From Patescibacteria group bacterium (GTDB lineage Bacteria; Patescibacteriota; Patescibacteriia; Magasanikbacterales; GWA2-37-8), in the NCBI GenBank assembly GCA_041649475.1, contig JBAZNA010000001.1:264612-328611 (forward strand): a DNA stretch of 64,000 bases, in the 5' to 3' direction. A program made the translations under genes and the position numbers. Positions within the stretch are counted from its first letter, which is position 1. Each line of letters opens with the position of its first letter. Positions 1,295-64,000 of the stretch are shown here, piece after piece. The notes below the pieces were generated by a model. It saw only the letters and a list, made by a program, of their open reading frames with translations. It ran no database searches and had not been told where the DNA came from.

Positions 1295-1396
1295 AAAGAG
1301 GGAGTAGTAATTGTCTTTAAGCGGGTTTGACCGCCACAGCGGTCACCCTGAGCCTCGCGGCGAGGAAAGCGAAAAGATAATTACTACTCCCTCTTT
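1295..1396. terminator. Bidirectional intrinsic terminator between convergent uvrA and rplS. An 18-bp perfect inverted repeat (1295-1312 / 1379-1396) encloses a ~66-nt loop that carries two sub-hairpins (GACCGC-CACA-GCGGTC; CCTCGC-G-GCGAGG). An A-run lies 5' and a T-run 3'
   Basis: Inverted repeat read directly: AAAGAGGGAGTAGTAATT ... AATTACTACTCCCTCTTT. On the minus strand it is followed at once by TTTTTTGTTTTTT. Confidence 0.7.
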
Positions 1397-1408
1397 GATT
1401 ATATATTT

Positions 1409-1741
1409 TTATTTTTTTTCCTTCAAACGTCTCTTAAACATCGGGTCTCTTAAGTAGTTTAATTTCGCTCTGCGGACGTCGTATTGTTTCACGACTTCAA
1501 TCTTGTCAACGACCGGTGAGTGGATTGGGAAGATTTTTTCTACACCCACGCCATTGCTGATTTTTCTGACGGTGATGGTGCCGCCGGCTTCCTGGCCGTG
1601 TTTGGCCGCAATAATCGTACCCTCAAAAACCTGGATACGTTCTTTTTCTTCGCCCTTGGCATTTAATTCTTTGATTTTTTGATGAACCTTTACGACCATG
1701 CCTGGTTTGTAAATGGTTTCGGTCTGTGTGGTTTCGGTCAT
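1409..1741 (-). CDS. rplS: 50S ribosomal protein L19
   Basis: 110 aa. KVHQKI...[11 protein letters not shown]...[17 protein letters not shown] matches bL19. Confidence 0.9.
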
Positions 1742-9482: not shown

Positions 9483-11642
9483 TTAAATATCCAGGTTCTG
9501 CACTTGTTTGGCATGGGTCTGGATGAATTTTTTGCGCGGTTCAACCTCATCGCCCATTAAAATCTCAAACATTTCATTGGCTTTCTCCGCGTCATCAACC
9601 GTCACGCGCTTCATCAACCGGTGAGCCGGATCCATAGTGGTATCCCAAAGCTGTTCGGCATCCATTTCTCCCAAACCTTTGTAGCGCTGGATGTTTACTC
9701 TTACACCGCCGATTTGCAGGGCCTGGACTTCATCACCGCCTTCACCCTCTTCAGACGTGGTCTCACCCTCAACCGGTTCAACTTTCTCAATTTTGGCTTT
9801 GCCCTTTTCTTTTGTCACAGAGGTTTGCAGATCTTTTAAGATTTTTTCCCGATCTTCATCATTAAACGCGTACTGTAAATTTTTTCCATACTTAATGCCG
9901 TAAAGCGGCGGCTGGGCGATCAAAATATGTCCGCCGGTGATTAGAGCGGGGAAGTATCTGTAGAAGAAAGTTAGAAGCAGGGTGCGGATGTGCGAACCAT
10001 CCACATCAGCATCGGTCATAATTATGATTCGGTGATAGCGGAGCTTGGCGATGTCAAACTGTTCGCCGATGTTTGTGCCCAAGGCAATGATTAAAGATTT
10101 TAATTCATTGTTGGTTAAAATTTTGTCCAAGCGGGCGCGTTCAACATTCAAAACTTTTCCGCGCAAGGGCAAGATGGCTTGGTGCTCGCGGTTGCGTCCT
10201 TGTTTGGCGCTGCCGCCGGCCGAGTCGCCCTCAACAATAAACAATTCCGAGTCCTCAGCGTTGCGGCTGCTGCAGTCGGCTAACTTGCCCGGCAGAGTGA
10301 AGCCCTCCAAAGCGCCTTTGCGCAAAATGGTATCGCGGGCGATCTTGGCCGCATTGCGGGCTTTAGCCGCCAACACGCATTTTCCGATAATGGCTTCGGC
10401 GTCTTTTGGATGTTCTTCCAAATAAATCAAGAATTCATCATTCATTATTGTCTCCACCGCGGTTTTAACCTCGGTGTTTCCCAGCTTGGCTTTGGTCTGG
10501 CCTTCAAACTGCGGTTCTTTCACTTTTACGGAAATGATAGTATTTAAACCCTCGCGCACGTCTTCGCCGGTCAGATTCGCATCTTTTTCTTTTAAAATAT
10601 TTTTATTGCGCGCGTAAGTGTTCAAACTGCGGGTGAGAGCGGTTCTAAATCCGGCCACGTGCGTGCCGCCTTCAAGGTTGAATATGTTATTGGTAAAGGC
10701 GAAGAGAGATTCGGTATATTCCTCGCTATACTGTAGGGCGATTTCTACTTTTGTGCCTTCATATTCTTTTTCAACATAAAATATGGTCTCGTTTTTGATT
10801 TCTTTATTTTGGTTCAAGTGGCGGACGTAGGAAGCGATGCCGCCTTCAAAATAAAATTGATAACTTAGGTTCGGGTAATTGATGGAAGTTTTATCAGTTT
10901 CTTTTTCTGCCGGGCTGCGTTTGTCGGCTATGCTGATTCTGATGCCCTTGGACAAATAAGCCATTTGGCGGACATGGTCAACAATTGTTTTCCATTCATA
11001 ATCCAGGGTCTCAAAAATTGTATCATCGGCTTTGAAGGTTATAATGGTACCGCGATCTTTGCAGGTGCCAATCTGGTGAACTTTTTTAATCGGATTGCCG
11101 ATGTGATATTCCTGCACCCAAATTTTGCCGTCGTGGTGAACCTCGGCTTTGGTATAAGAAGATAAAGCGTTTACTACTGACACGCCCACGCCGTGCAAAC
11201 CGCCGGAGACCTTATAACTGTCGGAATCAAATTTTCCGCCGGCATGAAGTTTGGTCATGACGACTTCCAAAGCGCTGACTTTCATCTGCGGATGAATGTC
11301 AACCGGAATGCCGCGGCCGTTATCTTTGACTTCAACTATGTGATCCGGCAAGAGGGTAATGTCAATCTGGTTACAAAATCCGGCCATGGCTTCATCAATG
11401 GAGTTATCAACCACTTCCCAGATAAGATGATGCAAACCAACCGGTCCGGTTGAACCGATATACATGCCCGGCCTACGGCGGACTGCTTCCAATCCTTCGA
11501 GGACAGTAATGTTTTTGGCGCTGTAACCGCCGTCTGGTTTTTTTAATTCTTTTTTAGGAGCCGATTTTGGTGCCGCTTTTTTTGGCGCTGGTGTGGACTT
11601 TTTTTCTTCAATTCTTCCCCTTTGAACTCGTTTAATAGGCAT
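9483..11642 (-). CDS. gyrB: DNA gyrase subunit B
   Basis: GLHHLIWEVVDNSIDEAMAG, GGKFD..SYKVSGGLHGVG, the TOPRIM region (EGDSAGGSAKQGR) and a GyrB C-terminus. A lysine/proline-rich N-terminal extension is present. Confidence 0.95.
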   Translation of the reverse strand: MPIKRVQRGRIEEKKSTPAPKKAAPKSAPKKELKKPDGGYSAKNITVLEGLEAVRRRPGMYIGSTGPVGLHHLIWEVVDNSIDEAMAGFCNQIDITLLPDHIVEVKDNGRGIPVDIHPQMKVSALEVVMTKLHAGGKFDSDSYKVSGGLHGVGVSVVNALSSYTKAEVHHDGKIWVQEYHIGNPIKKVHQIGTCKDRGTIITFKADDTIFETLDYEWKTIVDHVRQMAYLSKGIRISIADKRSPAEKETDKTSINYPNLSYQFYFEGGIASYVRHLNQNKEIKNETIFYVEKEYEGTKVEIALQYSEEYTESLFAFTNNIFNLEGGTHVAGFRTALTRSLNTYARNKNILKEKDANLTGEDVREGLNTIISVKVKEPQFEGQTKAKLGNTEVKTAVETIMNDEFLIYLEEHPKDAEAIIGKCVLAAKARNAAKIARDTILRKGALEGFTLPGKLADCSSRNAEDSELFIVEGDSAGGSAKQGRNREHQAILPLRGKVLNVERARLDKILTNNELKSLIIALGTNIGEQFDIAKLRYHRIIIMTDADVDGSHIRTLLLTFFYRYFPALITGGHILIAQPPLYGIKYGKNLQYAFNDEDREKILKDLQTSVTKEKGKAKIEKVEPVEGETTSEEGEGGDEVQALQIGGVRVNIQRYKGLGEMDAEQLWDTTMDPAHRLMKRVTVDDAEKANEMFEILMGDEVEPRKKFIQTHAKQVQNLDI

Positions 11643-41807: not shown

Positions 41808-41859
41808 ATTTTATTTTTATGGTAAAATATATCAAACGCAATCGGAATCATCTTCAACT

Positions 41860-43464
41860 ATGGAGGTCTCATACACATATTTTGCCTTTTCAGCTGTCTT
41901 TAATGCTTTTGTCAGCACTTTTTTGGGTTTCTTGATTTTGTTTAAAGACAGAAAAAACAAGATATACAGAAATTTGGCCTGGTTCAGTTTTGGCGTGGCC
42001 CTATGGTCTTACGCGTATATCCTGTGGCCATTGGCGCCTAACCGCGAACTGACTTTGTTGTCTTTCCAACTCCTTCACATCCCGGCTTGCTTTGTGTCTA
42101 TCTTCTATCTTCATTTCGTCGTTAACTGGCTGGGCATATATAAAAAACAAAGATTGATAATTTGGCTGGGATACATCATTTCCTTCTTTTTTGCCTGTAC
42201 TACTTTTACGACGGATTTTATCGCCGGCATGGTGCCTAAGTTCGGTATGCGCTATTGGGCGGTGCCTGGGCCATTGTATGATTATTATTTGGTAATGTTT
42301 TTTGGCTTCACGCTTTACGCCACTTATCTTTTGATTAGGCACTACTCTAAAGAAACCGAAATCAAAAAGAAACAAATTGCCCTAATGCTGGTCGGCATCG
42401 TTTTATCTTTTATCGGCGGCTCAACCAATTATTATCTTTGGTATGAGGTGAATATTCCACCTTACGGAAACATCCTGGCTTCCTCGTTTGTTATTTTTAC
42501 CGTTTATGCCATTATCCGTTATAAACTTCTTAACATAAAACTCATTGCCACTGAAGGCGCGCTTCTGATAATGAACACTTTATTGTTGTTCAGGTTTTTG
42601 ACTTCAAGGGATACGACTGAATTGATTGTCAATCTTTTAATCATGATTGGTTCTTTGGTCCTTTCTTTTATCTTGATTTCAAGCGTAAAAAAAGAAATAA
42701 AACGCCGTGAGGAAGTAACTGTTTTGGCGCGTTCGCTTGAAGCCGCCAACGCCCAACTGAAAGAATTGGATCAGCAAAAAACCGAATTTTTATCCATCGC
42801 CTCCCACCAACTGCGGACGCCGCTTTCCATCGCCAAAGGGTATATAGAATTGATTAAGGATGGGGCCTATGGAAAGGCGGGGCCGGAAATGGTTAAAGTT
42901 TTGGATAAAATGGATACCAGCAATGAACACTTGGTAAAACTGGTTGACGAGTTTTTAGACATCACTCATATTGAACAGGGGCAGATAAAATATGATTTCG
43001 CGGAAAAAAATATCTGCGAGATCACCGATGATGTTATCCATGAGCTGGCGGAAAAAGCAACACAGCAAGGATTGAAAATAAGCTGGGCTTGTCCCCGGGA
43101 AAGAAAAAATATTTTTTGTGATGGCGAAAAAATTCGTCACGTGGTATTAAATTTCATTGATAATGCCATTAAGTATAGCGACAAGGGTGTGGTGGCGATT
43201 ACTTTAAAGAATGAAAATAAGGGAGTGGCCTTCAGAGTAAAAGATAACGGATTGGGTTTTGATAAAGCGGATGAAGCCGGATTTTTTCAAAAATTTTATC
43301 GCGGGAATAATGTTAAGGGCGTAAGTATTAACGGTACCGGGCTTGGTCTTTTTGTTTGCCGTAAATTTATAGAAGCCCATAAGGGCAAGGTTTGGGCCCA
43401 TAGCGACGGCTTGGGCAAGGGCAGTGAGTTTGGTTTTTGGATACCGTCAACCCAAAATTCATGA
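41860..43464 (+). CDS. Sensor histidine kinase with a multi-pass N-terminal membrane sensor domain (HisKA + HATPase_c); start set to the Met after the island terminator
   Basis: H-box SIASHQLRTPL, N/G1/G2 boxes (NFIDNAIKYS, DNGLGF, GTGLGL), 6-7 TM segments at the N-terminus. No response regulator is adjacent. The ORF track start at 41650 overlaps the island and has implausible composition. Confidence 0.8.
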   Translation: MEVSYTYFAFSAVFNAFVSTFLGFLILFKDRKNKIYRNLAWFSFGVALWSYAYILWPLAPNRELTLLSFQLLHIPACFVSIFYLHFVVNWLGIYKKQRLIIWLGYIISFFFACTTFTTDFIAGMVPKFGMRYWAVPGPLYDYYLVMFFGFTLYATYLLIRHYSKETEIKKKQIALMLVGIVLSFIGGSTNYYLWYEVNIPPYGNILASSFVIFTVYAIIRYKLLNIKLIATEGALLIMNTLLLFRFLTSRDTTELIVNLLIMIGSLVLSFILISSVKKEIKRREEVTVLARSLEAANAQLKELDQQKTEFLSIASHQLRTPLSIAKGYIELIKDGAYGKAGPEMVKVLDKMDTSNEHLVKLVDEFLDITHIEQGQIKYDFAEKNICEITDDVIHELAEKATQQGLKISWACPRERKNIFCDGEKIRHVVLNFIDNAIKYSDKGVVAITLKNENKGVAFRVKDNGLGFDKADEAGFFQKFYRGNNVKGVSINGTGLGLFVCRKFIEAHKGKVWAHSDGLGKGSEFGFWIPSTQNS

Positions 43465-43522
43465 TTGTCAATTTTTTTTAAATAGTGTAATATATACTTG
43501 TTAAAAATTAAGCCAATACCAT

Positions 43523-43996
43523 ATGATATTTCAAAAATCATCCCCTAAAAATATTGTTGAGGAAGAACTGGAAATAGTTGAATTTTCTCCGCAAACCACT
43601 TCCGATGAAGTGGAAACGGTTGTTGGTCCGTCCGTAAATGTTGAGGGTGATTTTGCCTCGGAAGGCAATATCGTGGTAAAGGGCACGGTTTCCGGCAGTG
43701 TTTATACCAGCAAGCACCTGACGGTTGAGATTGGCGCCAAAATTGTCGCCAATGTTAGAGCCGGCAGCGCTACGATCGCCGGTGAAGTAAAGGGCAACAT
43801 GAAGATAAAGGAATCGCTGGAACTCACATCCACTTCAAAAGTTTTAGGTGATGTTGATGTCAGGACATTGACGGTTGAATCCGGCGCCCTGCTTTACGGA
43901 AAAATCACCATGCCCGGAATGGACGCGAGCGACAAACCGTCACGGAATAAATCGGTTAAAAGGGTGACAGAGGAACAGATGACCACGCTTGAATAG
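43523..43996 (+). CDS. Bactofilin (polymer-forming cytoskeletal protein)
   Basis: Repetitive beta-helical G.V.G...V.G.V pattern (GNIVVKGTVSGSVYTSKHLTVEIGAKIVANVRAGSATIAGEVKGNMKI) typical of the bactofilin/DUF583 domain. Confidence 0.75.
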   Translation: MIFQKSSPKNIVEEELEIVEFSPQTTSDEVETVVGPSVNVEGDFASEGNIVVKGTVSGSVYTSKHLTVEIGAKIVANVRAGSATIAGEVKGNMKIKESLELTSTSKVLGDVDVRTLTVESGALLYGKITMPGMDASDKPSRNKSVKRVTEEQMTTLE

Positions 43997-44008
43997 AGGA
44001 GTTGGAAT

Positions 44009-44785
44009 TTGGATATATTTATGTATGTTTATCTCTACGACAATCTTTTGCGCCAGAAAAATTTTACTTCCACCATTAAGGCAATTGAGGTTAGATTGAC
44101 CGATTACGGGATTGCCGGAAAAATTTTGCGTCTCAACAATTATATTGACACCAAGCCGATAATTGAGGATGAAATCAAGAAAGGCGCCAAAACCATAGTT
44201 ATTGTCGGCAATGATTCAACCTTCGGCCAGGTGTTGTCGCGCAGCGCCACCTGTGGCTGTACATTTGGTTTTCTGCCCGTCGGGCCGGATAATTCCATTG
44301 CCGAGGTCTTGGGCATCCCGGAAGGGGTGGAGGCCTGTGATGTGTTGTCAAAACGTCGCCGTGAATTTTTGGATGTCGGCTGGATGAACAGCAGATACTT
44401 TGTTTCCCAGCTTCACATTATGCCGGGAAAATTACAAGTGGTTTATGATGAGCGCTTTAAGGTTACGGCCGCTGACAAAATGGAAGTTATTGTTTGTAAC
44501 TTACAGCCGTTTTTTTGGAAAAAAGACAAGAAAGACCGGGAGCGCCGCGTGGTGCATCCGCAGGACGGAAAATTAGAGGCGTTTCTGCGGCCTTTGACAA
44601 AAAACAAGTGGTGGGGGTATAAATATGAAGACCCCAGCATTTTTCCGTTTGAAGAGATGATGATTTCCAGCCGCGAACCGTTTACGGTTGAGGCAGACGG
44701 CAAAATCTCAAAGGAAGTTAAAGTAAAAATAAAATTGGCCCACAGCAAGATAGATATGATTGTGGGGAGGAATAGGAAGTTTTAA
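44009..44785 (+). CDS. Diacylglycerol-kinase-catalytic-domain (YegS/BmrU-like) lipid kinase family protein, divergent
   Basis: IVIVGNDSTFGQVL corresponds to the GGDGT loop; FGFLPVGPDNSIAEVLGIP corresponds to the LG.LP.GT.NDFAR.LGIP segment. Confidence 0.55.
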   Translation: MDIFMYVYLYDNLLRQKNFTSTIKAIEVRLTDYGIAGKILRLNNYIDTKPIIEDEIKKGAKTIVIVGNDSTFGQVLSRSATCGCTFGFLPVGPDNSIAEVLGIPEGVEACDVLSKRRREFLDVGWMNSRYFVSQLHIMPGKLQVVYDERFKVTAADKMEVIVCNLQPFFWKKDKKDRERRVVHPQDGKLEAFLRPLTKNKWWGYKYEDPSIFPFEEMMISSREPFTVEADGKISKEVKVKIKLAHSKIDMIVGRNRKF

Positions 44786-44802
44786 ATATAAAAAGGAGGG
44801 GT

Positions 44803-45495
44803 ATGAAAAGAGGAGGAAGGAAACCCTTGGGAAGGGTTAAAATTAAGTGGTCTTCTAATTTTGCGTATGCAATTGGGCTTATTGCGACTGATGGATGCTT
44901 ATCAAAAGATGGTAGGCATGTAGTTTTTGTTTCAAAGGATTTAGAGCAGATAGAAAATTATCAGAGAACTTTAGGTATTTCATGTTCCATAGGGCGGAAA
45001 AGCCGGGGAGGCGAAAGTGAAAGAAAATATTTTGTTCTTCAGTTCGGGGATGTCCTTTTCTATAAATTTTTATTATCAGTAGGTCTTACTCCTGCCAAAT
45101 CGAAAATTATTGGTGAGCTTGAAATACCAGATGAATATTTTTTCGATTTTCTGCGTGGACATTTGGATGGAGACGGGACGTTTTATTCGTATTGGGATCC
45201 GCGTTGGCATTCCAGTTTTATGTTTTATACTGTTTTTCTTTCAGCGAGCAAGAAACATATTGATTGGATATCCTCTAAATTATACCAATTTTTGGAAATC
45301 AAGGGGCACATAGTGAATAATAACGACTTAATTTACAGTTTGAAATTTGCCAAAAATGAATCTTTAAAATTATTGCCAAAATTGTATTATTCTGATAAAA
45401 TAATTTATCTGTCCAGGAAATATAATAAGATACAAAAAGCTCTGCATATTGAAAACAAGCACAATAATGAGTCAAAAAATGCCCGGGTGCTGTAA
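44803..45495 (+). mobile_element. Free-standing double-motif LAGLIDADG homing endonuclease gene; its stop codon lies inside the downstream tRNA-Leu
   Basis: Two LAGLIDADG motifs, YAIGLIATDGCLSKDG and FLRGHLDGDGTF, about 100 aa apart. No intron or intein context is visible. Confidence 0.7.
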
Positions 45496-45564
45496 CCGGT
45501 AGCCAGCTTGGTTTGAGGTACCAAGGTCCTAACGGACGTGGAGGTTCAATTCCTCTCCCGGGCA
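45481..45564 (+). tRNA. tRNA-Leu (anticodon GAG), class II with long variable arm; CCA not encoded
   Basis: GCCCGGG-TG-CTG-TAACCGGTAGC-CAG-C-TTGGT-TTGAGGT-ACCAA-GGTCCTAACGGACGT-GGAGG-TTCAATT-CCTCT-CCCGGGC-A. The variable arm closely resembles that of E. coli tRNA-Leu. Confidence 0.85.
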
Positions 45565-45613
45565 CAATTTACTTTGCTAAAAAGTGAACTTCATAGTAAA
45601 ATATAGGGGATAT

Positions 45614-45856
45614 ATGCGTTACTTTATCGGAATAGTCATGGTCGCGGCAGGGGTGTTTTTGGTTTTAAAAACTGAATGGTTTATTCAGAATTTTGGCACT
45701 AATGCTTGGGCCGAAGAAAAATTCGGTACAGGCGGCGGCACCAGAATGGTGTATAAATTCGTGGGAATTATTTTAATATTTTTTGGTTTTTTGGCGATAA
45801 CCAATTTATACCAGGGATTTTTAGCCGGCACAGTCGGCAAAATATTTGTCCGCTAA
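45614..45856 (+). CDS. Hypothetical small membrane protein (2 TM)
   Basis: Hydrophobic segments only; the start is uncertain. Confidence 0.4.
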   Translation: MRYFIGIVMVAAGVFLVLKTEWFIQNFGTNAWAEEKFGTGGGTRMVYKFVGIILIFFGFLAITNLYQGFLAGTVGKIFVR

Positions 45857-45863
45857 TAAATAT

Positions 45864-46415
45864 ATGACCCATTCAGGCACAGCTTTAATTGATCCATATA
45901 AAATTTTTGCGAAAATTGATTTGGGCCCGGGTATGCGGGTGGCGGATTTGGGCTGCGGTCGCACCGGTCATTTTGTTTTTGCGGCCTCACAGGTTATCGG
46001 CGATAAAGGAATTGTTTACGCGGTTGATGTGATTAAAAATGTTTTGGAAAGCGTCAAGAGCATGGCTAAAACCGAGGGTTGTGATAATGTGCGAACCGTG
46101 TGGTCTGACATTGAGTTGATTGGTAAAACGCCAATACCGGATAACAGTTTGGATGCTTGTTTTTTTATTAATGTTTTGTCCCAGGTTAAAGATAAGGTGT
46201 CGGCCCTGGGGGAGGCGACACGCATGCTCCATCGTGACGGATTTTTAATTGTGGTGGACTGGGTAAAAAAATTGGGCGGCTTGGGGCCAACACCTGAATT
46301 AATGCTGCCGGCGGAAAAATTAACTGGTTTGGGCGCGGAGAAAAATTTAAAACCAATTGACAAATCCATGGCCGGGGACTATCATTACGCTGTAATTTTT
46401 CAAAAAACCGTATGA
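45864..46415 (+). CDS. Class I SAM-dependent methyltransferase (native low-GC; start possibly 45846)
   Basis: Motif I VADLGCGRTG and motif II IVYAVD. Confidence 0.7.
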   Translation: MTHSGTALIDPYKIFAKIDLGPGMRVADLGCGRTGHFVFAASQVIGDKGIVYAVDVIKNVLESVKSMAKTEGCDNVRTVWSDIELIGKTPIPDNSLDACFFINVLSQVKDKVSALGEATRMLHRDGFLIVVDWVKKLGGLGPTPELMLPAEKLTGLGAEKNLKPIDKSMAGDYHYAVIFQKTV

Positions 46416-46816
46416 ACATAAAAAATTTATTTGATTTATACTATTGGTTTAGGGAGCCGTATACCGCTACGGGCCTGACTCTCTGGCTTTTGGTCGGCGG
46501 CTTTCTGTTTTTGATCGTAACCGGCCTGATTATACAAATAATCGCGCAATATATTAAAAATAAGACCAGCAAGGTTGTTTTAAAGAAAATCAGTACCCTG
46601 GAAATGACAATGGGCTTTCTTGGTTTGCTTTGGATGTTTTTCAGGCAGGAAAGAGTGGCGTTTTTGGCCTGGAGATTTTGGCTGCTAATTTTTGCCGCGG
46701 TTTCGGTCTGGTGGATATATAGAATTATTTGGTATGCGGTCAAGCGCGCGCCGGAGATAAAAGCCGAGCAGGAGAAGAAAGAAAGAATTGAAAAATATTT
46801 GCCCGGTCGCGGTTAG
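46412..46816 (+). CDS. Hypothetical membrane protein (3 TM)
   Basis: Hydrophobic segments only. Confidence 0.4.
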   Translation: MNIKNLFDLYYWFREPYTATGLTLWLLVGGFLFLIVTGLIIQIIAQYIKNKTSKVVLKKISTLEMTMGFLGLLWMFFRQERVAFLAWRFWLLIFAAVSVWWIYRIIWYAVKRAPEIKAEQEKKERIEKYLPGRG

Positions 46817-46826
46817 ATTATAAACT

Positions 46827-47183
46827 ATGACAAGGAGGGGGAAAAATTTGGGTGACTTCGGAGAAGCCCGGGCCTGCGATTTTTTAATCAGGCACGGGTT
46901 TGCAATTATAGAAAGAAATTATCACACGACAGTTGGTGAAATAGATATCATCGCCGAGAAGGGCGGTGATTATTATTTTATTGAAGTGAAAACGCGCCGG
47001 AATTTTAATCTGGCCAGTGATGAGGCAATAACTTTCTCTAAACGCAAACGACTGAATAAAACCGTCAAGATATATTGCTATCGGAAAAATATCGCCGGTG
47101 GTTCAATTATTTTAGCCGGCGTAATTATCGCGGCTGATGCGGCGCGGAAAAAATTGAAATTCCGATTTTGCGTGTTTAGTTGA
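46827..47183 (+). CDS. YraN-family (UPF0102) predicted endonuclease
   Basis: GE.A...L...GF.I.ERN.....GEIDIIA......FIEVK.R pattern of UPF0102. Confidence 0.7.
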   Translation: MTRRGKNLGDFGEARACDFLIRHGFAIIERNYHTTVGEIDIIAEKGGDYYFIEVKTRRNFNLASDEAITFSKRKRLNKTVKIYCYRKNIAGGSIILAGVIIAADAARKKLKFRFCVFS

Positions 47184-47208
47184 CATTTTGTGAAATTTTT
47201 AGTATAAT
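47180..47208 (+). promoter_or_regulatory. Consensus sigma70 promoter upstream of ndk (TTGACA-17-TATAAT)
   Basis: Perfect hexamers and spacing. This implies the true ndk start is the Met at 47239, not 47209. Confidence 0.65.
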
Positions 47209-47238
47209 ATGGCCAACTTTATTCATAATATTTTTAAT

Positions 47239-47844
47239 ATGGCGGTTCATCCATCTAAAGAAAAAACATTTGTTATCATCAAACCGGACGGAGTCCAGCG
47301 CGCTTTGGTTGGCGAGATAATTCAGCGTTTAGAAAAAGTCGGTTTGAAAATTATTGCTTTAAAGATGGTGCTTCCAACCGAAGATCAGTGCTGGACGCAT
47401 TACAACAAAGACGATGCCTGGTTTAAGCAAAAAGGGGAGAGGACGATTGAAAACAGAAAAGCGATGAAAATGAAGGTTGATAAATCAGCTCTTGAATACG
47501 GCAAAGATATTGTCCGCGCTTTGGTTAAATTTATGACTGCCGGTCCGGTGGTGGCTATGGTTTTATCCGGCAATCAGGCGGTAGGGATTGTTAAAAAATT
47601 AGTTGGCGGCACCGAACCGCTGACATCCGATGTGGGAACCATCAGAGGTGATTTGACTTTGGATTCTTATGAACTTTCCAGTTTGGATGAACGGGCCGTG
47701 CGCAATTTGATTCATTGTTCGGATAAACCGGAAGAAGCCGAGAGGGAAATTGACATTTGGTTTAAACCGGAGGAATTGATTGGTTATAGGCAGATTCAGG
47801 AAGAGATTTTGTATGATGTAAACCTGGATGGAATTCTAGAGTAA
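47239..47844 (+). CDS. ndk: Nucleoside diphosphate kinase with a ~60-aa internal insertion
   Basis: EKTFVIIKPDGVQR... and the C-terminal NLIHCSD..EEAEREIDIWF (active-site His) are present. A non-canonical segment lies between (QCWTHYNKDDAWFKQKGERTIENRKAMKMKVDKSALEYGKD). Confidence 0.8.
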   Translation: MAVHPSKEKTFVIIKPDGVQRALVGEIIQRLEKVGLKIIALKMVLPTEDQCWTHYNKDDAWFKQKGERTIENRKAMKMKVDKSALEYGKDIVRALVKFMTAGPVVAMVLSGNQAVGIVKKLVGGTEPLTSDVGTIRGDLTLDSYELSSLDERAVRNLIHCSDKPEEAEREIDIWFKPEELIGYRQIQEEILYDVNLDGILE

Positions 47845-47949
47845 CTAAATATAAAAGATAGTTTCTTCTCTCTTTAGTTTTAATTGATTTAGCTCAAAAT
47901 CAGGTGTATAATATCCCCATCTTAAGCAATTTTTTTGTATTCCTAAAAT

Positions 47950-48954
47950 ATGCCTAAAAAACAAATCATCGCTGTCCTCGGAGCCGGAAACATGGGCACA
48001 TCCATCGCCAATGTAATCGCTCAAAATGGGTATAGTGTAAATCTTTGGAACTATGAAGGCGACCCGGAACCCTTAAAGCAAATTGCCCAATTCGGCGAGA
48101 ATAAAAAATATCTGGCCGGCATAAAGTTATCAAAAAATATTAAACCGGTTTTTGATTTGGCCAAAGCTCTCAAAACCGCCAATATTGTCTTTTTTGTCGT
48201 GCCCAGTTCATTTGTGGCTGATCTTGCCAAACGAACGGTCAAACATTTAACAAAAGAAACTATTTGTGTTGACGCCTCCAAAGGTATGGATGAAAAGTCC
48301 CTGGAAATCATCCCCAATATTATCAGCGCCAGCTTGCCCAAGCATTTAAAAAACAAAGTGGCCACCATTTCCGGACCGGCGATTGCTATTGATATGGTCA
48401 AAGGCGGTTTTACAGCCATGAATATCGCTTCAAAAAATTTTAAATCAATTACAGCCGTCAAAAAAGTAATGGAAAATAAAAATCTGAAATTGATCCCAAC
48501 CAACGATATTATCGGGGTTGAAGTTACGGGTTCGTTTAAAAATGTTTACGCCATTGCCATGGGCTTGTGTGACGGGTTTGGATATTCGATGAACACCAAA
48601 GCCGCCCTTTTGGTTATCGCTTTAAAAGAAATCAGCGTATTGGTTAAAAAAATGGGCGGAGAGTCCCATACGGTTTATGATCTGGCCGGCCTGGGTGATT
48701 TGGTCGGCACTGGTCTTTGCGCCACCAGCCGCAACCGGCGTTTCGGCGAACTGGTTGCCCAGGGTCTTACCAAAAATGAAGCAGTAGCCAAAGTCGGCCA
48801 AACAGTTGAAGGTATAAAGGCCAGCCAGACGCTTTATAAACTCAATAAAAGATATAAGATAAAATCTCCGTTTGCGGAAATGGTCTACAAAATAGTTTCC
48901 GGCGTTGCTTCGCCCAAATCTGCTTTGGAAAAATTTTTACAAAATATCAAATAA
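47950..48954 (+). CDS. gpsA: NAD(P)H-dependent glycerol-3-phosphate dehydrogenase
   Basis: IAVLGAGNMGTSIA Rossmann motif and the GpsA C-terminal domain pattern (G...NRRFG..L..G). Confidence 0.9.
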   Translation: MPKKQIIAVLGAGNMGTSIANVIAQNGYSVNLWNYEGDPEPLKQIAQFGENKKYLAGIKLSKNIKPVFDLAKALKTANIVFFVVPSSFVADLAKRTVKHLTKETICVDASKGMDEKSLEIIPNIISASLPKHLKNKVATISGPAIAIDMVKGGFTAMNIASKNFKSITAVKKVMENKNLKLIPTNDIIGVEVTGSFKNVYAIAMGLCDGFGYSMNTKAALLVIALKEISVLVKKMGGESHTVYDLAGLGDLVGTGLCATSRNRRFGELVAQGLTKNEAVAKVGQTVEGIKASQTLYKLNKRYKIKSPFAEMVYKIVSGVASPKSALEKFLQNIK

Positions 48955-63596: not shown

Positions 63597-63914
63597 TTTG
63601 AGTGCGCTAATGATTAACCTCAAACACCGCAAACAAAGCACCTCATACAATTCGTTAATCTTCTAAGTCCCGAAAGGGATACTGGAAAGAGAAAAGAGCA
63701 ACTCCAAATTGGGTTTCTCTTTTTTCTTTCTCGCAAAGGCCGCCTAGAGGTGGCACAAGAAAGAAAGTGAACCTTGACAACACAAACGTGACAAAGACCA
63801 TATTAAAGTCTATTCAAACCAAACGGTTAGGCGCGATTCGTCGCGCCGTACCAAACAGTAACAGTAATAAATCCAAACAAACTCGTTCATATGAACGAGA
63901 TCAACTCTTTTTTA

Positions 63915-64000
63915 AGAGTTTGATCCTAGCTCAGGATGAACGCTGGCGGCGTGTTTAAGGCATGCAAGTCGGGGGACGGCCTTGTAGCAATACGAGGTAC
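63915..64000 (+). rRNA. 16S ribosomal RNA, 5' end (continues beyond the window)
   Basis: AGAGTTTGATCCTAGCTCAGGATGAACGCTGGCGGCGTG matches the universal 16S 5' end and the 27F primer site. Confidence 0.9.

Follow-up and report, generated by a model that had tools for sequence, protein, structure and literature searches.

The window analysed here is a stretch of 64,000 nucleotides (nt) from a Patescibacteria group bacterium (contig JBAZNA010000001.1 of assembly GCA_041649475.1, positions 264,612 to 328,611 of the forward strand; window positions are counted from its first letter), and it contains an intact LAGLIDADG homing endonuclease gene (HEG) whose open reading frame (ORF) runs into an intact tRNA-Leu(GAG) gene. 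Comparative analysis makes it likely, with a probability of roughly 0.7, that the gene encodes a free-standing homing endonuclease targeting tRNA-Leu(GAG), that the tRNA is regenerated by partial duplication, and that the gene belongs to a large family in Patescibacteria. The insertion site of this family appears to be the tRNA-Leu(GAG) gene, its members adjoining the 5' end of an intact tRNA whatever gene lies upstream, and the family behaves as a mobile element in being present or absent at one precise site, discordant with its hosts and represented by decaying copies.

The endonuclease ORF (coordinates of all features are collected in Table 1) encodes a protein of 230 amino acids (aa) of the monomeric two-motif type, and its ATG start codon is preceded by AAGGAGG, giving the gene its own start and Shine-Dalgarno (SD) sequence. 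One gene caller began the protein at a TTG, codon 9 (P0001, 222 aa); the database contains this shorter version, and an exact look-up of the 230-aa form gave no match. The Pfam family LAGLIDADG_3 (PF14528) was detected as the sole domain, at 25.7 bits against a cut-off of 22.5, with no helix-turn-helix (HTH) or other domain, and an NCBIfam search of the protein returned no matching model. The top sequence match in the PDB is I-Tsp061I (2dch, E = 1.5e-4), in whose alignment GLIATDG corresponds to GLIAADG and LDGDG to IDGDG; both catalytic aspartates match, in agreement with a preliminary description of this DNA, which had reported a free-standing gene with both motifs intact and had pointed to the catalytic acidic residues. 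D30/G31 and R118, G119, D122, G123, D124 and G125 are invariant in an alignment of 29 sequences, the window protein and 28 homologues. The AlphaFold2 model (predicted local distance difference test 86.6, predicted template modelling score 0.85) has the layout alpha-beta-beta-alpha-beta-beta-alpha twice in one chain, and in a Foldseek comparison with the PDB the top 50 matches were all LAGLIDADG proteins, with I-Tsp061I again the best (E = 1e-11) and WhiA and the bI3 maturase among the structural neighbours; the C-terminal tail is variable across the alignment and modelled with low confidence. The same intact ORF is present in Logan assembly SRR8542065, 100% identical to window 41827-48495 (6,669 nt); both sequences may stem from a single sample. 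The window copy is an intact, probably active member of the family that lacks the remnant of insertion described below, and it is predicted to make site-specific double-strand cuts at a target of about 20 bp, a prediction to which the anticodon-stem shift reported below lends indirect support.

Regarding the gene that the ORF enters, direct reading of the sequence, ARAGORN and Rfam agree on an intact tRNA-Leu(GAG) and on the 15-nt overlap that had been described for it; the ORF ends ...AAT GCC CGG GTG CTG TAA, with four sense codons and the TAA inside the tRNA. The Rfam score of 41 bits (cut-off 29) came from a scan of a small region, and the whole-window scan at the gathering threshold omitted this class II tRNA, an omission that is a filter effect. 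No group I or group II intron, intein or other Rfam family was detected near the endonuclease gene by Rfam scans of the window, which upholds the earlier statement that the gene has no intron, intein or rRNA context; as regards an intein, Hint blocks are absent, and 230 aa with LAGLIDADG_3 as the sole domain leave no space for one. For a separate tRNA promoter inside the 3' end of the ORF there is a single candidate, about 80 nt 5' of the tRNA, a weak match to the consensus of a kind that occurs 21 times against 10 expected in this AT-rich region.

Homologues of the window protein are numerous, a protein search returning 3450 of about 215-230 aa, all from Patescibacteria and with identity on a plateau of 58-66%, and a scan of GTDB contigs with one genome per species gave 600 listed pattern matches of which at least 557 encode a relative. 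The 80 best matches were fetched and, together with the window, make up 81 genome loci (individual loci are cited below by their L numbers). Among these, tRNA-Leu(GAG) follows the endonuclease gene on the same strand in 78, with one of the tRNAs carrying the anticodon AAG, and in the remaining three the contig ends less than 100 nt past the endonuclease gene. The commonest gene order is RluD-rplS(L19)-HEG-tRNA-Leu, L19 being found upstream in 59/81 loci; the order histidine kinase-bactofilin-DAGK-like gene-HEG-tRNA occurs in the window and five other loci, and further contexts exist. The genes downstream vary among loci, and the tRNA is the sole constant partner. The stop codon of the endonuclease gene lies 0-16 nt ahead of the tRNA in 52 of 77 relatives and 13-36 nt inside it in 22, and in three the ORF reads through the tRNA. 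The 15-nt overlap of the window copy is therefore not special, since 25 of the 77 relatives likewise have their stop codon within the tRNA, nine of them in the same register of -15. In several homologues the C-terminus reads ...ARVL or ...ARVS, a translation of the tRNA acceptor stem. The tRNA with anticodon AAG, an unusual leucine anticodon for a bacterium, is that of L006 (3463-3548).

An unbiased sample of tRNA-Leu(GAG) sites was drawn by scanning metagenomes with a pattern taken from the tRNA only (anticodon loop, T-arm and acceptor 3' strand), which gave 120 loci, 118 of them with a called tRNA. In 43 of the 118 the site is empty, rplS being followed directly by tRNA-Leu(GAG) across a gap of 4-307 nt and often just 4-13 nt; 20 carry the HEG, 33 have other contexts, two have other inserts and 20 have too little upstream sequence. 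The HEG is missing at 43 of the 59 rplS-linked sites in this sample. Empty alleles are also known from the gene context of the window, in which the DAGK_cat-like gene is then followed directly by tRNA-Leu(GAG): in L087 and L198 the bactofilin/DAGK-like context and the tRNA are present and the HEG is absent, with a spacer between the DAGK-like gene and the tRNA of 32 nt and about 150 nt, respectively, bringing the totals to 45 empty versus 20 occupied sites. The linkage to the tRNA behind any upstream gene and the existence of HEG-less alleles in the same contexts together strongly support the earlier suggestion that the tRNA-Leu gene or its flank serves as the target site. Both states meet among close hosts, L070 and L071 being occupied and L113, L086 and L183 empty with L19 proteins 86-90% identical, and several copies are in decay: L139 retains the C-terminal ~95 aa of the endonuclease alone, the gene of L166 is frameshifted after motif 1, L200 has a remnant of 52 aa, and that of L054 contains a CAG-to-TAG nonsense codon. 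L160 has a spacer of 1.6 kb between the rplS stop codon (1540) and tRNA-Leu(GAG) (3169; locus reoriented with the tRNA on the plus strand) that holds two unrelated ORFs of 337 aa and 174 aa and not the HEG.

A trace of how the element arose is found upstream of the HEG, where a conserved motif, aaTTGGtAtACGCTAttaccTTGAGgt, is present in about 74 of 101 occupied loci, roughly 10-130 nt ahead of the start codon. It corresponds to tRNA-Leu from the D-loop to the anticodon loop, stopping at the anticodon arm, and closely resembles the tRNA consensus of empty alleles, TGGTAGACGCgCTACCTTGAGGT; the frequency of this pseudo 5' half argues that the element was born by insertion into a tRNA gene. In L042, L022 and L104 the pseudo-half also keeps the acceptor 5' strand, which in most loci is replaced by the T-tract of the rplS terminator 5' of the pseudo-half. 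A TATAAT follows the pseudo-half either immediately or 17 nt past TTGAG, and the tRNA promoters of empty sites read TTGAAA-N17-TATAAT, an identical spacing which suggests that the pseudo-half doubles as the promoter of the cassette. A sister clade associated with tRNA-Leu(CAG), 44% identical to the window protein, has TTCAG in the pseudo-half at all three of its independent loci (the L070 paralogue, L203-205 and L208/209) where the GAG family has TTGAG; the pseudo-half thus tracks the anticodon of the adjoining tRNA, evidence that the motif originated in the tRNA that is targeted. Since it is closer to the family consensus than to the host's own tRNA (L071 compared with L113), the pseudo-half now travels with the cassette. 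Footprints of pseudo-halves were sought in the 43 empty rplS-tRNA spacers and none was detected, so that there is no evidence for empty sites arising through imprecise loss. The motif has been lost in the window, L033 and L003 and is kept in L054, which shares the context of the window. The earlier remark that there are no tRNA halves accordingly holds for the window, where motif searches found neither a tRNA-half remnant nor the pseudo-half motif anywhere, and fails for the family. In two loci the GAG site is empty and another tRNA gene adjoins an endonuclease gene: L203 has its HEG at the CAG site and none at the GAG site behind rplS, and in L119 a relative 46% identical to the window protein (9629-10330) runs into tRNA-Phe(GAA) (10324-10396) and the rplS-tRNA-Leu(GAG) site of the same locus is empty.

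Regarding selection and descent, intact copies of the HEG are under purifying selection, with ratios of nonsynonymous to synonymous divergence (dN/dS) of 0.08-0.2, and their identity is 0.53-0.67 regardless of host distance. For the same genomes, mean pairwise identity is 0.60 for the HEG, 0.50 for L19 and 0.45 for RluD; Mantel correlations are r = 0.30 for HEG and L19, r = 0.46 for HEG and RluD and r = 0.62 for L19 and RluD, and the positive correlation between HEG and host distances is significant (p = 0.001). The distant hosts L001 and L006 share 78% DNA identity over the HEG and tRNA, with an unsaturated HEG dS of 0.9, whereas their L19 and RluD proteins are 44% and 52% identical and the dS of these host genes is saturated, which argues for horizontal transfer. 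In the related hosts L011/L024 and L031/L077 the HEGs are more diverged than the host genes. A family scan on viral contigs returned only distant LAGLIDADG relatives (<=31% identity), so that a phage vector is not indicated. HEG and L19 distances showed no correlation with the D-arm, variable-arm or T-arm of the tRNA (|rho| <= 0.12), these segments being too short to give a signal for either tRNA half. The preliminary description had offered a domesticated or a recently mobilised copy; recent mobilisation is not needed for an old, widespread family with pairwise identities of about 60%.

The anticodon arm distinguishes empty from occupied alleles. In the unbiased set the arm CTACC-TTGAGGT-GGTAG was detected in 20 of 43 empty and 2 of 20 occupied loci (Fisher p = 0.005, kinship ignored), and overall the CTACC/GGTAG stem is present in 22 of 45 empty and 11 of 97 occupied alleles. 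The differences between empty-site and occupied-site tRNAs, and the extra diversity of the latter, cluster on both strands of the anticodon stem. The two empty loci in the context of the window, L087 and L198, have CTACC/GGTAG, and the window tRNA has the unusual stem TTGGT/ACCAA. These sequence comparisons hint at an enzyme that recognises the DNA of the anticodon arm and at carriers shielded by compensatory changes in the stem.

Under the homing interpretation, the enzyme would recognise about 20 bp of tRNA-Leu(GAG) DNA around the anticodon arm and cut HEG-less alleles, and repair would copy the cassette from the occupied allele. The founding insertion would have fallen near the anticodon arm, at about positions 38-44 of the tRNA gene, and would have been viable solely because a duplicated 5' part rebuilt an intact tRNA downstream, a duplication that would take the place of the intron or intein by which such insertions are usually made harmless. 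The displaced 5' half may persist as the promoter, perhaps also an operator, of the cassette, and the altered base pairs in the anticodon stem of the regenerated tRNA may protect occupied genomes. The lineage of the window has lost the pseudo-half; given the 17-nt gap and strong SD, transcription continuing from the upstream operon probably drives its HEG, and its tRNA most likely comes from the same transcript. Coupling of the HEG to the tRNA promoter region, considered in the preliminary description, is less probable than dependence of the tRNA on transcripts that run through the endonuclease gene. The overlap itself would be a by-product of tight packing, tolerated since the protein varies at its C-terminal tail, which is also modelled with low confidence. 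Processing by RNase P would strip the stop codon from HEG mRNAs and may thereby hold enzyme levels low.

Several points weigh against this interpretation. With the tRNA regenerated, the presumed target is again complete, and a duplicated 5' half sits awkwardly with homing by double-strand break, since the intact copy offers the broken end an alternative partner for pairing. The stem changes would be an imperfect shield: the 11 occupied alleles noted above keep the presumed sensitive stem, L070 (occupied) and L086 (empty) have an identical anticodon arm, and the stem statistics take no account of phylogeny. The recognition site, cut position and mode of immunity are all deduced from sequence patterns. 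The choice of the 80 genome loci by best match biases that set toward intact copies, and use as a promoter does not fully explain how strongly the pseudo-half is conserved. Finally, the flat identity of about 0.6 and the protein's being more conserved than L19 and RluD across distant hosts could reflect long vertical persistence with a rigid core.

Three other explanations were weighed, passive hitch-hiking, domestication and a decayed intron, and all are less well supported than a homing cassette. According to the first, which we regard as improbable although it fares best of the three, an inactive or barely active endonuclease gene is retained since the tRNA needs its promoter and transcript, and the occupied and empty states result from ordinary recombination and loss. 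In most loci the promoter does come from the cassette, and ORF and tRNA are too close for a separate tRNA promoter between them, so that imprecise deletion of the cassette would silence an essential tRNA; Patescibacteria may, in addition, exchange DNA by transformation, with recombination through the conserved rplS and tRNA flanks. Purifying selection and invariant catalytic residues are, however, unexpected for a mere spacer, the existence of isoacceptor-specific sister clades on tRNA-Leu(CAG) and tRNA-Phe points to active retargeting, and the anticodon-stem shift of occupied alleles suggests nuclease pressure.

Domestication appears somewhat less probable again. It would make the protein a LAGLIDADG derivative with a host function tied to tRNA-Leu(GAG), vertically inherited and needed by the cell, which might act as a maturase-like RNA chaperone or as a regulator of the rplS-tRNA transcript. 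A dN/dS of about 0.1, a mean identity above those of L19 and RluD, the correlation of HEG with host distances, a fixed place beside the tRNA with almost no spacer, implying co-transcription, and the presence of WhiA and the bI3 maturase among the structural neighbours would all suit such a role. Known domesticated LAGLIDADG proteins, including WhiA and many maturases, have lost the catalytic aspartates, but here both are invariant and no extra domain is present. The gene is, moreover, absent from about two thirds of comparable sites (the rplS-linked sites and the two in the window's context), including those of close relatives of carriers, degenerate copies are tolerated, and its phylogeny is decoupled from that of the hosts by the transfer between L001 and L006 and by the pairs in which HEGs outdiverge host genes. 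The strict form of this explanation, vertical inheritance inferred from the 60% identity plateau and the conserved synteny, was rejected on the empty sites, the degenerate copies and dS.

The anticodon region is the classical position of the group I intron in bacterial tRNA genes, as in tRNA-Leu(UAA). That the HEG is a relic of such an intron (group I or other) in the anticodon loop of tRNA-Leu, with the pseudo-half as the old 5' exon and a ribozyme since decayed, would fit the end of the pseudo-half at the anticodon loop or stem and an archaeal intron-encoded enzyme as the nearest solved structure, and is nonetheless the least probable of the three, as Rfam scans of the window and of 13 related loci with a pseudo-half detected no ribozyme or intron family, the non-coding flanks are too short for a ribozyme core outside the ORF (about 10-40 nt from pseudo-half to start codon and <=16 nt between stop codon and tRNA), the downstream tRNA is complete and not a 3' exon, and replacement of most acceptor 5' strands by the terminator T-tract leaves no tRNA that could be spliced.

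Homing endonucleases normally persist in conserved genes inside self-splicing introns or inteins. The family described here, with thousands of proteins in hundreds of species, would represent an intron-less solution at a tRNA gene, with a duplicated 5' part of the gene and a pseudo-half as promoter, and no description of a tRNA-linked family of this kind was found in the searchable literature. The archaeal enzymes I-Tsp061I and I-DmoI are alike in fold, in length (about 200-230 aa), in having two motifs per chain and in the aligned catalytic acids; they are encoded by introns in rRNA genes, whereas the window enzyme is free-standing, bacterial, tRNA-linked and only about 20% identical. Organellar HEGs can carry a replacement for the end of the gene that they invade, as in the fungal mitochondrial rps3 and atp6 cases. 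These and the integrative elements that rebuild tRNA genes are similar in that part of the target is duplicated, an intact gene is rebuilt and a pseudo-fragment is left; they differ in involving the 3' ends of protein genes or, through integrases, the 3' ends of tRNA genes, where here the 5' part of a tRNA lies beside a LAGLIDADG gene.

In the candidate phyla radiation (CPR), LAGLIDADG genes have been described from insertion sequences and group I introns of 16S and 23S rRNA genes (Tsurumaki et al., 2024; PMC11270868), a paper in which tRNA genes are nowhere mentioned. Those genes share with the present family the radiation, the superfamily and the targeting of conserved RNA genes, but they interrupt rRNA genes and are excised from the transcript, whereas here the tRNA is uninterrupted and regenerated by duplication. 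I-Ssp6803I of Synechocystis, encoded by a group I intron in the anticodon region of tRNA-fMet (PMC1995217), is likewise bacterial and has a tRNA anticodon region as both home and target; it is, however, a PD-(D/E)XK enzyme whose host tRNA is restored by splicing, in contrast to an intron-less LAGLIDADG gene with restoration at the DNA level. A parallel in behaviour is SegB of phage T4, one of the free-standing Seg and Mob endonucleases known for 'intronless homing' (PMC2330249), which also lies among or beside tRNA genes and spreads with flanking DNA into relatives without the HEG, and whose carrier is presumed to be protected by differences in target sequence, as proposed here. SegB is a GIY-YIG enzyme of a phage genome, without a pseudo-tRNA remnant or an overlap of ORF and tRNA, and the window protein has the LAGLIDADG fold; the window gene thus works like the Seg-type elements of T4 without being a member of their family.

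A wider interpretation goes further than the data on tRNA-Leu(GAG), and we advance it tentatively, at somewhat less than even chances: intron-less cassettes would invade essential tRNA genes throughout the phylum and be rendered harmless by duplicating the tRNA's 5' part, which would add a third strategy to introns and inteins. It would take in the sister clades on tRNA-Leu(CAG) and tRNA-Phe as well as an unrelated ORF family on Phe, Gly, Val and Ile tRNAs (see below). The pseudo-half would have become a promoter and perhaps, with the enzyme binding to it, an operator as well. Nuclease pressure would drive compensatory changes in the anticodon stem throughout the radiation, although the tRNA is essential, and a stop codon lying within the tRNA may tie the amount of endonuclease to processing by RNase P. 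The tRNA linkage in any case explains why gene callers report LAGLIDADG ORFs that enter tRNA genes in these genomes. If the proposed target is correct, the family would offer natural meganucleases with tRNA-gene specificities, whose switches from GAG to CAG or Phe could serve studies of retargeting; it would also mark where DNA passes horizontally between uncultivated ultra-small bacteria, and would exemplify an essential tRNA whose sequence is shaped by a selfish element.

Table 1. Positions of the endonuclease gene, its surroundings and related genes in the window and in other loci.
Feature	Sequence	Positions	Strand	Basis
Free-standing LAGLIDADG homing endonuclease gene, intact	Window	44803..45495	+	ORF list, Pfam, PDB/Foldseek, homologues
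LAGLIDADG motif 1, AIGLIATDG, residues 23-31, catalytic Asp30	Window	44869..44895	+	Alignment with I-Tsp061I
LAGLIDADG motif 2, LRGHLDGDG, residues 117-125, catalytic Asp124	Window	45151..45177	+	Alignment with I-Tsp061I
Intact tRNA-Leu(GAG), class II, long variable arm	Window	45481..45565	+	ARAGORN; Rfam tRNA 41 bits, full length
15-nt overlap, ORF end on tRNA positions 1-15	Window	45481..45495	+	Direct sequence reading
17-nt spacer with Shine-Dalgarno AAGGAGG; left insertion junction, pseudo-tRNA/promoter motif missing	Window	44786..44802	+	Sequence
Upstream flanking gene, DAGK_cat-like, 258 aa	Window	44009..44785	+	Pfam
Weak candidate internal promoter TTGCCA-17-TAAAAT, upstream TG	Window	45373..45401	+	Consensus match alone
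CAG-linked sister-clade gene	L070	2095-2823	-	
CAG-linked sister-clade gene	L203	2378-3154		
CAG-linked sister-clade gene	L208	1668-2363		
Second-family ORF	L008	6038-6706		
Second-family ORF	L014	6210-6872		
Second-family ORF	L037	7196-7867		
Second-family ORF	L045	6600-7298		
Second-family ORF	L050	2342-3025		
Second-family ORF	L052	254-967		
Second-family ORF	L073	3098-3508		

The second ORF family, unrelated to the endonucleases, comprises proteins of about 220 aa with the motif LYWGEGGK and a weak HTH_3 match as the only domain hit, and its members end between -20 and +37 nt from the 5' end of Phe-GAA, Gly-GCC, Val-GAC and Ile-TAT tRNAs. An ORF parked on the 5' end of a tRNA may be a general habit in these genomes.

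About 20 of the 80 genome contigs end <=250 nt past the endonuclease-tRNA pair (L001, L003, L004, L005, L009, L012, L013, L022, L026, L034, L035, L038, L040, L050, L052, L053, L055, L062, L063 and L072), and these assembly breaks may reflect strain-level heterogeneity at the locus. In the window, rplS stands at a separate place (1409-1741, minus strand), and in this genome a terminator and not tRNA-Leu lies behind it. The terminator is a perfect long hairpin (1300-1395, minus strand), AGAGGGAGTAGTAATT...AATTACTACTCCCTCT followed by a T-run, located between rplS and a convergent uvrA-like gene (30-1280). At its other end the window closes 93 nt into a bacterial 16S rRNA gene (63908-64000).

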